Assembly: GCA_041649295.1 (NCBI GenBank)
Contig: JBAZNI010000001.1
Coordinates: 76,720 to 140,719 of the forward strand
Reading direction: 5' to 3'
Source of the DNA: Candidatus Pacearchaeota archaeon
Lineage (GTDB): Archaea > Nanobdellota > Nanobdellia > Pacearchaeales > GW2011-AR1
Length of the DNA stretch: 64,000 nucleotides
The notes below the pieces were generated by a model, which was not told the DNA's origin, did no database searches, and saw nothing but the letters and a program-made list of their open reading frames with translations. Shown here one piece after another: positions 14,609 to 54,239 of this stretch (position 1 is the first letter of the stretch; each line of letters starts with the position of its first letter). The position numbers were made by a program, and so were the translations under genes.

Positions 14609-14798
14609 GGATCCGTAGCTCAGTCTGGTCAGAGCACTGGACTCTTAAATGTAAGGACCTAGAGAACATACTTGTTCTCTGGTTCAGAGAATCTTTGATT
14701 CTCTTGAAACCCAGGTTCCTTAGCACTCAACCTCCTAAGATAATAACTTAAGGGCAAGAGAAATCCAGGTGTCGAGGGTTCAAATCCCTTCGGGTCCA
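14609..14798 (+). tRNA. tRNA-Lys(CUU) with a 115-nt intron at canonical position 37/38
   Basis: Hand-folded: acceptor GGATCCG/CGGGTCC, D-arm GCTC..GAGC, anticodon stem CTGGA/TCCAG with loop CTCTTAA, T-arm GAGGG-TTCAAAT-CCCTT, discriminator A. Intron 14648-14762 contains two perfect hairpins. Confidence 0.7.
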
Positions 14799-20302: not shown

Positions 20303-20374
20303 TGGGGCCCCCGTGAATCGAACACGGTACACCTACGTCTTCAGCGTAGTGCTCTCCCAATGAGCTAGGACCCC
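20303..20374 (-). tRNA. tRNA-Phe(GAA)
   Basis: Hand-folded cloverleaf: acceptor GGGGTCC/GGGCCCC, anticodon loop CTGAAGA, T-loop TTCGATT, discriminator A. Confidence 0.85.
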
Positions 20375-20465: not shown

Positions 20466-20750
20466 ATCAACGAGCGAGTTAGAGATAGGCCACATTCTGT
20501 TGTTTGTCCTTTAAGGAATCAAACATGCTAACATCTGACTATGCGGTTTTAAACCTTGCACCAACCAGGATGCTCGTTCCAGCCCAAAAGGGTATCGTTT
20601 CTATCTCATTGCCCTGCCTCACGACAGTATTCTTTCGAATATGGTTATAAGTGGTGTGCGGACCTTCCTCAGACACAGAGAATTCATTTTTAATTCTTGT
20701 TGATTTAACAACACTGCACCGAAGTTAGCTGTCTAACTCGCTCTGAAAAA
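20466..20750 (-). ncRNA. Candidate structured RNA (SRP 7S RNA or minimal RNase P RNA) closed by a 12-17 bp terminal helix
   Basis: GC-enriched about 285-nt island between tRNA-Phe and the next gene. Ends CGAGCGAGTTAGAgAtAG ... cTgTCTAACTCGCTC are inverted repeats. Minus-sense has GAGGAAGGUCCGCAC (CR-I-like), ACAGAAUGUGGCCUA (CR-V-like) and GGAACGAGCA (SRP helix-8-like). Identity and strand are uncertain. Confidence 0.3.
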
Positions 20751-21620: not shown

Positions 21621-21839
21621 ATTATATAAACCAATGTTTCTTTTTAAGATTCCTAGCCATTAAATGGCTGGGCCACACGCCAATTAATTAGCACATCATT
21701 TAGATTTATTTTAAGTCATGAAATTCAACTACGACAATTAGTAGTTATGATATGAATGCGAAACTTGAAGTAGTGGTGCTCTGTCGTTAAGACACTAGGA
21801 GGCTCCTTTTTAGGAGAGATTAATTGGCTACAAAGTTGG

Positions 21840-29195: not shown

Positions 29196-29490
29196 CTTAT
29201 AGATTTAAATTGTAGCTTTTAGTAACTGCAGACTGAACACGTCGCCGAAGCTTCGTGCTTACATCTCAGTTCTATCAACGTCCTCTTCTTGGACGGCCTA
29301 AATTGTCTCGTTTTGCGGATGGCTTCGTGCTTAGATGCTTTCAGCACTTATCCATACAATGCGTAGCTGCTCGGCATGCTCATAACAACCGATACACCAG
29401 AGGCATCCAAGTACCGTTCCTCTCGTACTAGATACTCGTTCCACTCAGACAATAACACACCTAGTAGATATCATACAAACTGTCTCACGT

Positions 29491-30254
29491 ATATTTTTCC
29501 ACTTTTTCAAGTTGGTATGGACTATACCTTCATCCTTACTTTTTGTAAGGAGATCGACGTCTTAGCCATCTTTTGCAAGATGACTCTTGAGCTAAACTCT
29601 CAGTCTCTACGGGGATAAAGATTTATTTACCACTTCATAAGTTAATTTTCTTTTCTTAGAATAGTTAAGTTCTTTGAACTTATCTACAAGCTTACAAATA
29701 TCTAGAAAATCTTCATCAGATTTTTTATTATCTAATTTATTTAAGATTTCTAAACCAAGTTTTACTTGTCTTTTCTTTAACTTTATATATGGTTGCAGAA
29801 GTATCAAAATTTTATGAACTTCTTTTGGTTCAACAATAGTATAATCGCTAATTCCTGTTTTACGATGACGAATACATCCATTCTCAAATATATTTTTAAG
29901 CCATTCTAAAATCTCTTTATATTCTGTTTTTTGATAAAATGCTACTGAGCTTCTTATCTGAAACTTTTGTTTATAATCTGGCCTTGAAACTATCTGAAAG
30001 AAAATGCTTCCATCTCCATCTAAGAATCCTGCGATATATGCAAGTGTTGTTTCATCTGCAAATCTCATCTTCCCTCGGTATTACCATGCTTTATCTGTTT
30101 TTAATCTTTTATTTTAATCCTAAAAGGACAAATAAGTTTAGGTTTCACCGATATGAGTCGATTTTATTTTTCATAACATTACTGCTATGCAACGCCGTGT
30201 TTTGTGTTAACTCCATATTTCTATATTCACATGGGTCTGCTGGTTTTGTGTTGA
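29491..30254 (-). other. 23S intron 1 (about 764 nt) in the AACGUC-GUGAGACAG region, E. coli about 2593; likely archaeal BHB-type
   Basis: Exon sequence GGGTTAAGAACGTC (30255 and up) resumes as GTGAGACAGTTTG at 29489 and down. Intron does not end in G and the 5-prime exon junction is ambiguous, arguing against group I. Confidence 0.7.
29607..30068 (-). CDS. LAGLIDADG homing endonuclease (intron 1 encoded)
   Basis: LAYIAGFLDGDGSIFFQ motif, 153 aa, fully inside the intron. Confidence 0.85.
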   Translation of the reverse strand: MRFADETTLAYIAGFLDGDGSIFFQIVSRPDYKQKFQIRSSVAFYQKTEYKEILEWLKNIFENGCIRHRKTGISDYTIVEPKEVHKILILLQPYIKLKKRQVKLGLEILNKLDNKKSDEDFLDICKLVDKFKELNYSKKRKLTYEVVNKSLSP

Positions 30255-30907
30255 CGTTCTTAACCCAGCTAACGATCCCTTTTAATATGTGAACTCCAGC
30301 ACCCTTGGTAGCTTATGCACTACCAGGTTAGGAAGAGCCGACAGCGATGTACCAAACCGCCCCGTCAATACGGACTATCGGGGGCGACAAGCCTGTTATC
30401 CTTGGGGTACCTTTTCTGTCACATTCGGAATCTATTAAGAATTCTCGAAGGTTCGCTAGAACCAGCTTTCGCTTCTGCATTTCTTGCTTTTCGAAATACA
30501 GTTAGATGAGCTTTTGCTCTTACACTCGACTCCAGATTTCCACCCTGGATGAGCTCATCTTTGTGCCCTGTAGATAGATTTTCTACAGGGTGCCGCCCCA
30601 GCCAAACTGCCCACAAGCTGCTGTTCTCTCAAGAGAGTAAGTGGTTCCTTAATTGGTAAGTAGTATTACACTGTTGCTCCACATCTACCGAAGTAAATGT
30701 CTCGACGCTCCTACCTATTCTATGTATCAATCAAAAAATCACAACAACATGCTGCAGTAAAGGTCCACAAGGTCTTAGCTTCCCACTAGGCATCACCGGC
30801 CTTTTCACCGGTTAATGATTTCAGAAGGTTCTGGTTAGGGACAGCGACCACCTCGTTAAACCATTCATGCAAGTCGCCATTCAGACGACAAGGTATTACG
30901 CTACCTT

Positions 30908-31742
30908 AAGCAAACTGTTACTTTTATAACCTTGAATTATTCAAGGCGGGTTTGCGCGAGCAAACCTCTATATGTCTCCATATAGATCGGACTATATCAT
31001 CACAAATTGCAATTTAGTTTTGTGTTTGGCGTATAGTCTCTGAGGATTCTAGAATTAAAATTATTTTGTTTTTTTAGTTTCATCTAAAAAACATTTTGAA
31101 AGCAATCTATCTAATGAATCATCAATTGCTATTTGTATGAATTCCTCTGGAGGAACTGCATAAAAATCCATCTTAGATTTACTCGATGTAAAAATAGGTA
31201 TTCCAGATTCAAACACTTTTGCTATTGGAATCCACAACCAAGTTTTATAATCAAATTCTTCATTTGATAAAACATACCAAATACTCAAACTAAATTTTCT
31301 TTGAATTGAAGAATAATTTTTTGTTTCTTCACTATCTATTGGATATGTTTTATATTCAGAACTTAATTTTTTGTATTTTACATCAACAAAAATAAATCCT
31401 AAATTTGGAATTAAAATTAAAAAATCAGGACGTTTTCCACTGAAATATTTTTTAAAAGCAAAAGATAATGTTTGAGTATCTTGTTGCAAATATAGATATG
31501 GTATATTATGTCTGTCTAGCCATTCTCTAAATTTTATTTCAGCTTCATTTCCTTTTTTCTTATTTTCTTCCTCTATCTGATTCATTTTAGATTAAGGTTG
31601 GCTTTACTTATAATTTTTTCTATTCTAGTCTTTCCTGCGGATTGTCCTTATCTTTTAAATTTTTACTATTGATAAACAATTAGTACCAAAAGCTTAACAG
31701 GATTTTCCCGCATACAGCCAAATTTAAACGCCCCCTAAATTG
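30908..31742 (-). other. 23S intron 2 (about 835 nt) between GUAACUAUGACCCU and AAGGUAGCG (domain IV, E. coli about 1923-1931)
   Basis: Exon landmarks are contiguous in E. coli but separated here by about 835 nt containing an ORF. Confidence 0.65.
31061..31585 (-). CDS. PD-(D/E)xK-fold nuclease, putative intron-encoded homing endonuclease (intron 2)
   Basis: RPDFLILIPN...FIFVDVKYKK gives the D...(D/E)xK motif arrangement; 174 aa, fully within the intron. Confidence 0.55.
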   Translation of the reverse strand: MNQIEEENKKKGNEAEIKFREWLDRHNIPYLYLQQDTQTLSFAFKKYFSGKRPDFLILIPNLGFIFVDVKYKKLSSEYKTYPIDSEETKNYSSIQRKFSLSIWYVLSNEEFDYKTWLWIPIAKVFESGIPIFTSSKSKMDFYAVPPEEFIQIAIDDSLDRLLSKCFLDETKKTK

Positions 31743-35571: not shown

Positions 35572-35642
35572 TGGACCTGCCGGGAATCGAACCCAGACCC
35601 GTTCGTTGCAAACGAACAATTCTACCATTAGACTACAGGCCC
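35572..35642 (-). tRNA. tRNA-Ala(UGC) in the rRNA spacer
   Basis: Hand-folded: acceptor GGGCCTG/CAGGTCC with G3-U70, anticodon loop TTTGCAA, T-loop TTCGATT. Confidence 0.85.
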
Positions 35643-36350: not shown

Positions 36351-36563
36351 AATAATTCATTGATTTTTAGAGTTATAAAACTTATCACACTTTGTGTAAG
36401 AAGATTTATGATAAAAAATGTAGCACAATTTATAAAAATTGTTGTATAGAAAATTATTCAAAATAATTTTTAGTGTTCTTAAATTAACACCTTAGCTATT
36501 TTGTTTAACTTACAGAATTAAAATGAAAAATGCAAATAGTTTCCAAGTGAATAATATAATTTA

Positions 36564-38001
36564 GGAGGTGATCCATCTGCAGGTTCCCCTACAGATACCT
36601 TGTGACGACTTAACCTACCTTGTCTTACAAAATTTCGAATCAAACGAGCCTCAACAATGCAAAACTCGGTTGGTTTGACGGGCAGTGTGTGCAAGGGGCA
36701 GGGACTTATTCACCGTTCACTGATAATGAACGATTACTACGGATTCCGGCGTCATGAAGCTGGGTTGCAAGCTTCAATCTGAACTAAGCTGGATATTTAA
36801 GATTGGCTCCTCTTTTCAGAGTTGCATCTCATTGAATGCAGCATTGACGCGCGCGTGTAGCCCAGGGGATTCGGGCAGTACTCACCTAACGTAGCCCGCA
36901 CCTTCCTCCCGGTTACCCGGGCAGTCTGTATACTGTTCTTCTTTGAAGTAAGTATACACACGGGTCTCGCCTGTTACCTGATTTAACAGGTCATCTCACG
37001 ACACAGGCTGACGTCGGCCATGCAACTCCTCTCAGCGTGTCAGGTAAGCCCTTCAGACTGACCTTCATTCTGCTGTCGCTCCTGGTGAGGTTCACGGTGT
37101 AGAATCTAATTGAACCGCACGCGTCACCCGTTGTAGTGCCCCCCCGCCAATTCCTTTAAGTTTCGGCCTTGCGACTATACTTCCCAGGTAGCACACTCTC
37201 CGGCTTCCCTACAGCACCGATGCCTCTCGAAGAGATACCGATGTTTAGTGTGCAGTGTTTACTGCTAGGACTACAAGGGTATCTAATCCTTTTCGCGACC
37301 CTAGCCTTCATCTCTCACTGTCAGATCTGTACTCGTAAGGTGCCTTCGCTATTGTTAGTCCATATAGGATCAACCCATTTTACCGGTACCCAATATGTAC
37401 TCCTTACGTCTTCCAGTCCCTAGCCATGCAGTATCTTTTGCGCGCCCTATATTTAAGATATAGGATTTTACAAAAGACTTACATAGCAAGCTACAGATGT
37501 TTTAGACCCAATAAATGTGGCTGCGACTTGAACCGCTGGTATTACCGCGGCGGCTGGCACCAGTCTTTCCCGGTCCTTATTCGCCAAACTTTTTACATTT
37601 AGCAAAAGTTTTTTCTTTTCGAAAAAACACTCTGGTTCACTTTGTCACGCTTTCGCGCATTGCAAAATATTCTTAACTGCTGCACCCCGTAGGGCTAGGA
37701 ATAGTGTCTCAGATTCCTTCTCAGGGCCTCTCCGCTAAGAGCCCTTACTGATCATCGGCTTGGTGGGCCATTGCCCCGCCAACAACCTAATCAGCCGCAG
37801 CCCCATCTTAAGGCTCGAATTTCAAAGATTATACATTCCAGTAATAATCTTCTATTGAGTATTGTTCTCAGTTTCCCGAGGGTATCCTCAACCTTAAGTA
37901 AGGTTAGCTACGTGTTACTGAGCAGTTCGCCCTCTTTCGAGAGACTTGCATGTCTAAACACAAACCAGATAGCCGCAGCCGCCAGCAGGATAAACTGGAA
38001 T
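36564..38001 (-). rRNA. 16S rRNA (archaeal, about 1438 nt, no intron)
   Basis: Reverse complement gives 5-prime ATTCCAGTTTATCCTGCTGGC, GTGCCAGCCGCCGCGGTAATAC, and 3-prime AAGTCGTCACAAGGTATCTGTAGGGGAACCTGCAGATGGATCACCTCCT. Confidence 0.9.
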
Positions 38002-53915: not shown

Positions 53916-53980
53916 AATAATCAGCATTTCTAAAAATAGAAATTATTTAGTTGGAACTTAATAATTAGAATGCTGACAAT

Positions 53981-54068
53981 GAGGGCGTAGCTTAGCCAGT
54001 TAGAGCATTCGGCTGTTATCTGCAGGATAGACACCGAAATGTCGTGGGTTAAAATCCCACCGCCCTCA
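53981..54068 (+). tRNA. tRNA-Asn(GUU) with a 14-nt intron at 37/38
   Basis: Acceptor GAGGGCG/CGCCCTC, anticodon stem TTCGG/CCGAA, loop CTGTTA-[TCTGCAGGATAGAC]-A, T-arm GTGGG-TTAAAAT-CCCAC. Confidence 0.75.
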
Positions 54069-54239
54069 TTATCACTCACCATCGCGATGGATTGGTGAAT
54101 ATAAGTAGTTAGACTTAATAGAAATATTATTTAAACCTTTTGATTTTAGAGAATTATTACAGCCATTAAAGTAACCCAATAGTTTTTTCATTTCAACCTC
54201 TTATTACTATTAATATTATGATAACAATACTTATAAATG

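Follow-up and report, generated by a model that had tools for sequence, protein, structure and literature searches.

The insert that interrupts the 23S rRNA gene of the Pacearchaeota-type (DPANN) archaeon examined here is very probably a mobile intron of group I (subgroup IA3), located after U2593 in helix 93. The analysed window is the whole stretch of 64,000 nucleotides of DNA, and all coordinates refer to it. The element is of an already described kind, the archaeal IA3 introns at LSU/2593 that carry an I-CreI-type gene. From the sequence and by comparison with relatives we could establish its predicted ribozyme architecture, its splice junction and the family of its putative endonuclease. 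Its last nucleotide, omega, is an A, and this genuine oddity explains why the initial annotation misclassified the insert as a bulge-helix-bulge (BHB) intron.

The rRNA operon lies on the minus strand of the window, with the SSU gene at 36563-38001, a tRNA-Ala gene at 35572-35642 and the LSU gene from 33616 downwards. Across the insert region an archaeal LSU rRNA was called by Rfam on the same strand. The minus-strand 5' exon, ...GCUGGGUUAAGAACGU, ends at 30254 and the 3' exon, CGUGAGACAGUUUG..., begins at 29489; the whole intron occupies 29490-30253 (minus strand, 764 nt). Since a C flanks either side of the insert, the equivalent register 29489-30252 is also possible. The initial annotation had given the length as about 764 nt, which was right, and the position as 29491-30254, which was 1-2 nt off and lacked the strand. 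Its placement of a 23S rRNA intron next to the peptidyl-transferase centre agreed with our analysis: the insert interrupts the tip of helix 93, splitting it after U2593, and this site adjoins A2602 of the peptidyl-transferase centre. The insertion point is what we take to be U2593 in the numbering of the E. coli 23S rRNA. The site number agrees with LSU/2593 as given for the homologous intron by Nawrocki et al. (PMC6125680). The same insert was found at the same site in 25 GTDB genomes and 119 metagenome contigs, and its presence is thus not due to chance. The GTDB carriers were Pace-, Woese- and Nanoarchaeota, plus a few Patescibacteria. Among the relatives the intron is optional and its length varies from 264 to 945 nt.

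The approximately 300 non-coding nucleotides form a complete subgroup IA3 ribozyme with P1-P10, the P3/P7 pseudoknot, P7.1/P7.2 and P9.0. The IA3 structure was drawn on the window sequence from alignments of relatives, allowing standard pairs only, and all of its elements lie on the minus strand. P1 has AACGU (30254-30258) as its 5' exon strand, with U2593 in a U.G wobble pair at the 5' splice site; the five pairs were invariant in 35/35 sequences. The internal guide sequence, 5'-CACGGCGUU-3', is located at 30191-30199. Its GCGUU forms P1 with the 5' exon and its CACG forms P10 with CGUG of the 3' exon. P2 is a hairpin, AUAGCA-GUAA-UGUUAU, at 30173-30188, which was recovered by RNAfold and in which 6/6 pairs were changed on both sides among the relatives. 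The 5' strand of P3, AUCGAC (30157-30162), pairs with its 3' strand, GUCGAU (29553-29558); this helix was 100% paired and 5/6 pairs were compensatory.

The P4-P5-P5a-P5'-P4' domain together with the 5' strand of P6 was placed at 30072-30151 by the covariation count and RNAfold. P4 is UCGG:CCGA, P5 is ACC:GGU, and the GGG of P6 pairs with CCC at 29612-29614. An open reading frame of 153 aa fills the P6 loop (29607-30068). Its AUG immediately follows the P6 5' strand and its stop codon UAG overlaps J6/7-P7. The 5' strand of P7, GAGACU with a bulged A, lies at 29602-29607, was invariant in 35/35 sequences and contributes the G of a G-C pair that, judging from its position, is presumably the guanosine-binding site. 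Between P7 and P3' two extra hairpins, P7.1 (GAGU-UUA-GCUC) and P7.2 (CAUCUU-GCAA-AAGAUG), are located at 29567-29599; 4/4 and 6/6 pairs, respectively, were compensatory, and both hairpins were found by RNAfold. Such extra hairpins between P7 and P3' are the hallmark of subgroup IA in the Michel-Westhof classification. The P8 hairpin, UCCUUAC-AAAAA-GUAAGGA (29533-29551), was identified by an Rfam match, the covariation count and RNAfold. It is followed by J8/7 and the 3' strand of P7, UGAAGGUAU-AGUCC (29519-29532), the conserved group I 'S' element, which was invariant in the relatives and corresponds to GAUGAAGAUAUAGUC in the RF00028 consensus. P9.0 pairs AUA at 29516-29518 with UAU at 29491-29493. 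The region so enclosed (29491-29518) contains P9, CCA[A]CUU-GAAA-AAGUGG, at 29499-29515. Covariation in the P9.0/P9 region appeared as UA in 19 and CG in 14 sequences and as AU in 12 and GC in 11. The intron ends with omega, A at 29490, where the near-universal base is G, and the 3' exon strand of P10, CGUG (C2594-G2597), occupies 29486-29489, giving a 4-bp P10, CACG:CGUG.

The loop of P1 (30200-30252, minus strand) was found to hold an insertion of about 55 nt, in which AACACAAAAC occurs as a direct repeat and CCAUGU...AUAUGG forms an internal hairpin. Many relatives lack this insertion, for example the introns L002, L005 and L009 of our collection.

To assess the group I fold we counted covariation on 35 introns that were ORF-less or from which the ORF had been deleted, and used as controls the same helices with the partners slid by 1-3 columns. 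In the proposed structure 91.4% of the cells were paired, compared with 34-41% in the slid controls, and 38/62 pairs were changed on both sides, compared with 14-22/62. The covariation score was 0.445 (slid controls 0.06-0.10) and was reached by 0/500 shuffles. When the ORF was deleted from the window ribozyme, RNAfold gave a free energy of -78.3 kcal/mol with a z of -4.9 and recovered P2, P4-P6, P7.1, P7.2, P8 and P9. The ORF-less relatives, 264-450 nt long, retain the same core. A comparison with Rfam had been proposed by the initial annotation. In a permissive search of 951 nt the general group I model RF00028 matched 29498-29669 with 24.1 bits (E 8.6e-4), and the match spans the P8-J8/7-P7'-P9 region including the hallmark GAUGAAGGUAUAGUCC. 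Its score lies below the gathering threshold of 50, and a search at gathering thresholds assigned the insert to no intron family. For Nawrocki et al., too, significant archaeal matches were not obtained with the general model, and models of the subtypes were needed (PMC6125680). A scan of viral contigs with a loose pattern of the 3' core returned 27 chance matches and zero rRNA introns.

The position of the splice junction was given by the pairings on either side of it. The U.G wobble of P1 was found in 35/35 sequences, which fixes the 5' splice site after U2593. In P10 the third pair, between the third nucleotide of the guide and rRNA position 2596 (the N of the GNRA loop of helix 93), covaries, being A-U in 15 and G-C in 15 sequences; therefore the 3' exon begins at C2594. 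Directly upstream the 3-bp P9.0 covaries as well (AUG/CAU, ACC/GGU, AUC/GAU, ACA/UGU, ACU/AGU, AUA/UAU), and omega is the lone nucleotide between P9.0 and the exon. That the insert has no omega-G, as the initial annotation had stated, was confirmed: in the register set by P1 and P10 the 3' exon is preceded by A, and in the alternative register by C. The latter register, AACGUC|GUGAG with omega as C, was ruled out by the P1 U.G wobble and by the omega-G of 55 relatives. We also considered, and rejected, a splice shifted by 2 nt, which would make G2595 the omega nucleotide. The exon product would then lose C2594-G2595 of the GNRA-capped helix 93; moreover, P10 covaries in the canonical register, and the guide contains no complement to NGAG.

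From this architecture a splicing pathway can be proposed. The guide sequence pairs with the last five bases of the 5' exon, AACGU, in P1 and with the CGUG that opens the 3' exon in P10. P3-P8 and the P3/P7 pseudoknot form the catalytic core, in which the presumed guanosine-binding G-C pair of P7 is intact, and the 3' splice site lies between P9.0 and P10. Exogenous guanosine would attack after U2593, and the freed 5' exon would in turn attack the bond between A (29490) and C2594 (29489), by which the GNRA-capped helix 93 would be restored. The insert is thus predicted to be capable of guanosine-initiated self-splicing. Since omega is A and not G, we infer that the 3' splice site is chosen mainly via P9.0 and the unusually long P10, and P10 may in this way compensate for omega-A.

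The omega nucleotide was compared across 144 related introns. It was A in 89 and G in 55 and never C or U, a pattern that fits selection for a purine rather than decay. Omega-A was seen in ORF-containing and ORF-less introns alike, and about 9 switches between A and G were counted on the tree of intron cores. When omega-A introns were compared with omega-G introns, no compensating change was detected in the guanosine-binding site of P7 or in J6/7. The P7 strands GUAGAGACU and UAUAGUCC are identical in the two groups, so the guanosine pocket has not been re-tuned. The two groups differ in the number of contiguous P10 pairs, which was 3-6 (mean 4.0) in 65 unique omega-A introns and 0-4 (mean 1.3) in 45 omega-G introns (Mann-Whitney p 5e-16, uncorrected for relatedness). 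Omega-G introns that are nested within omega-A clades retain a long P10. With omega-A the definition of the 3' splice site thus appears to lean on P10 and P9.0. We are evenly divided over a wider reading, namely that in DPANN archaea most L2593 group I introns, the window intron among them, have changed omega from G to A with the pocket kept, and that the change is tolerated only where P10 has at least 3 bp (65/65), as a natural alternative way of defining the 3' splice site that has evolved repeatedly. The main text of Nawrocki et al. (PMC6125680) mentions neither the terminal nucleotide nor P10. Omega-A group I introns that still yield ligated exons have been documented (PMC6545197, PMC8146996). 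We concluded that omega-G is near-universal and not strictly defining for group I introns.

The initial annotation had regarded the missing omega-G as incompatible with group I, and had favoured an archaeal BHB intron, whose junctions pair into a BHB motif that is cut by EndA, after which RtcB joins the exons and the intron becomes a circle. The exclusion of group I could not be upheld, as the insert has a full IA3 core with strong covariation and a guide that pairs with both exons. A BHB intron would suit an archaeal host with intron-bearing tRNA genes, such as the tRNA-Lys(CUU) gene at 14609-14798 with an intron of about 117 nt, and the lack of omega-G speaks in its favour; BHB introns of rRNA genes can likewise carry LAGLIDADG genes (PMC6125680). 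However, the central helix of 4 bp reached only 1 bp in both registers compatible with the exons, the flanking runs were 0-1 bp, and in 0/110 relatives did the central helix reach 4/4. Cofolding of the exon-intron junctions, by which the initial annotation had proposed to find the motif, yielded no BHB. Furthermore, approximately 300 nt of non-coding sequence make up a conserved, covarying group I core, for which a BHB intron has no need. As no motif could be built in either register and none was present among the 110 relatives, we rejected the BHB intron, which we consider highly improbable. Even less credence can be given to the idea that the insert is an unspliced expansion segment kept in the mature 23S rRNA: the site in helix 93 lies beside A2602 of the peptidyl-transferase centre, and the insert is optional among relatives, varies from 264 to 945 nt and has a conserved ribozyme core.

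The terminal A itself, without a compensating change in the guanosine-binding pair of P7, was counted against the group I explanation. In model ribozymes the joining of the exons is strongly impaired when omega-G is mutated to A, and maturase activity is found in some LAGLIDADG proteins. The group I intron might be defective in the second step and depend on a protein, which could be a factor of the host or the endonuclease acting as a maturase; or it might be removed without ligation and leave the 23S rRNA split in the loop of helix 93, where a break at the tip of a hairpin could be tolerated. We consider this unlikely. Of the omega-A introns 36/65 are shorter than 600 nt, and ORF-less ones are common, so that a maturase encoded by the intron is not required in general. 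In omega-A introns P9.0 and P10 covary around the junction, as expected if exact ligation of the exons is under selection, and the mitochondrial omega-A introns of corals and anemones give perfectly ligated exons (PMC6545197, PMC8146996).

The complete 153-aa LAGLIDADG ORF noted in the initial annotation, containing LAYIAGFLDGDGSI, was recovered at 29607-30068 (minus strand), and the protein matched Pfam LAGLIDADG_1 with an E value of 3.7e-10. Searches against PDB sequences gave I-CreI (3.8e-27), I-CvuI (1e-24) and I-MsoI (3e-23) as matches. All three are encoded by group I introns that occupy LSU 2593 in the chloroplasts of green algae. Residues 8-149 of the protein align with residues 8-149 of I-CreI, and the equivalents of the Asp, Gln and Lys in the I-CreI motifs are kept, with GFLDGDGS, YQKT and IKLKKRQ opposite GFVDGDGS, TQKT and LKLKQKQ. 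The catalytic positions so matched are presumably D20, Q47 and K98 of I-CreI. An identical protein from a Candidatus Pacearchaeota MAG is listed at NCBI as 'LAGLIDADG family homing endonuclease', and about 1959 homologues were found, many of them approximately 80% identical. Given the single motif, the length of 153 aa and the similarity over the full length, the gene in the P6 loop is predicted to encode a homodimeric LAGLIDADG homing endonuclease of the I-CreI type. By homology and from the insertion site, the enzyme would cut intron-less 23S rDNA at ...AACGUCGUGAGACAG... and spread the intron by homing, the putative target duplex at LSU 2593 being TAAGAACGTCGTGAGACAGTTTGT.

The same 23S rRNA gene was found to contain a second group I intron at 30911-31742 (minus strand, 832 nt), inserted after U1923 (...GACCCU | CUUAAGGUAGC) and ending in a normal omega-G. 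Its Rfam group I matches were sub-threshold, with 34.6 and 21 bits. It holds an ORF at 31061-31585 (minus strand) for a protein of 174 aa that is not LAGLIDADG and for which no Pfam or PDB sequence match was detected. We found 266 homologues in Pace- and Nanoarchaeota, all annotated as 'hypothetical', and in this family E16, D54, D68 and K70 are invariant. An AlphaFold model of the protein (pLDDT 76.8) matched archaeal Hjc resolvases, RecU, DpnI and VRR_NUC, which have the PD-(D/E)xK fold in common. The 174-aa proteins are a candidate uncharacterised PD-(D/E)xK family of homing endonucleases from archaeal rRNA group I introns.

The tRNA-Lys(CUU)-like gene at 14609-14798 (plus strand), found by Rfam and missed by ARAGORN, carries its intron of about 117 nt after position 37, and a tRNA-Asn(GUU) gene of 90 nt at 53980-54069 (plus strand) contains a short intron. 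Both introns are presumably of the BHB type, and together with the group I introns of the 23S rRNA gene they suggest that both types of intron are in use in the host. Elsewhere in the window Rfam gave an RT-16 RNA match at 21652-21836 (plus strand), whose 106 bits clearly exceed the threshold. The archaeal RNase P RNA (20474-20741, minus strand) and a tRNA-Phe gene (20303-20374, minus strand) lie at a distance of about 1 kb. Among the relatives, the L2593 intron with its endonuclease was also present in contigs labelled Patescibacteria or bacterium (L018, L022, L023 and L024). The intron of L018, a contig labelled Patescibacteria, is identical to that of L017, which is labelled Woesearchaeota, and is flanked by archaeal-type exons; this suggests a binning error. 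The exons of L022 and L024 are of bacterial type (GAGACAGUUCGGUC), both introns end in omega-G, and these two seem to be true bacterial copies.

The ribozyme belongs to a class that was not reported from archaea until 2018. Omega-A is widespread among the L2593 introns and linked to a long P10, which makes it a modestly interesting lead. Among the L2593 introns dozens of omega-A and omega-G members form naturally matched pairs, in some of which the cores differ by only 3-6%, and such pairs would suit the study of exon ligation without omega-G and of its compensation by P10 length. For annotation, the BHB nature of archaeal rRNA inserts that bear a homing endonuclease gene should not be assumed.

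Archaeal IA3 group I introns at LSU/2593 have been published by Nawrocki, Jones & Eddy in 2018 (PMC6125680). The closest comparison was with their IA3.4 at LSU/2593, which is our homologue L005 (JWKY01000014.1, archaeon GW2011_AR19); the boundaries that we found for L005 agree with the published ones, as the length of 772 nt matches exactly. IA3.4 shares with the window intron the site, the subgroup, the host clade (DPANN) and a LAGLIDADG gene in P6; its endonuclease is 79% identical to the window protein and it likewise ends in A. The window intron differs from it in species and sequence, in length (764 vs 772 nt), and in having an additional long hairpin in the loop of P1 as well as a shorter P7.1 region.

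The Cr.LSU intron of the Chlamydomonas chloroplast, which encodes I-CreI (relatives I-MsoI and I-CvuI), is likewise a group I intron at LSU 2593 with a homodimeric endonuclease of a single motif. Plastid-type L2593 introns from metagenomes, with the exon CAAAACGU, could be aligned with the core of the window intron. The plastid-type relatives sampled all carry G as the last base, with 0 bp of P10 by our count, and their host is a plastid and not an archaeon. Between the archaeal target UAAGAACGU and the plastid CAAAACGU a few flanking bases differ.

Two further introns share the unusual end. The 23S rRNA intron of Coxiella burnetii reportedly ends in a nucleotide other than G and is spliced nevertheless. 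According to the title of the report by Raghavan et al. 2007, as cited in PMC11270868, it 'lacks the canonical omegaG'; its host and subgroup are presumably unrelated to those of the window intron. The ND5-717 intron of hexacoral mitochondria has A as its last base, and its exons are perfectly ligated in vivo (PMC6545197, PMC8146996). Its host, gene and subgroup are unrelated, and it is obligatory and vertically inherited, whereas the L2593 introns are optional and mobile and have switched repeatedly between A and G. The BHB introns in rRNA of Desulfurococcus, Pyrobaculum and the 16S rRNA of Thermoproteales (PMC4496867) resemble the window intron in their archaeal rRNA host genes and their LAGLIDADG genes. 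They are defined by a BHB at the junction and have no ribozyme core, whereas the window intron has no BHB and a full core.
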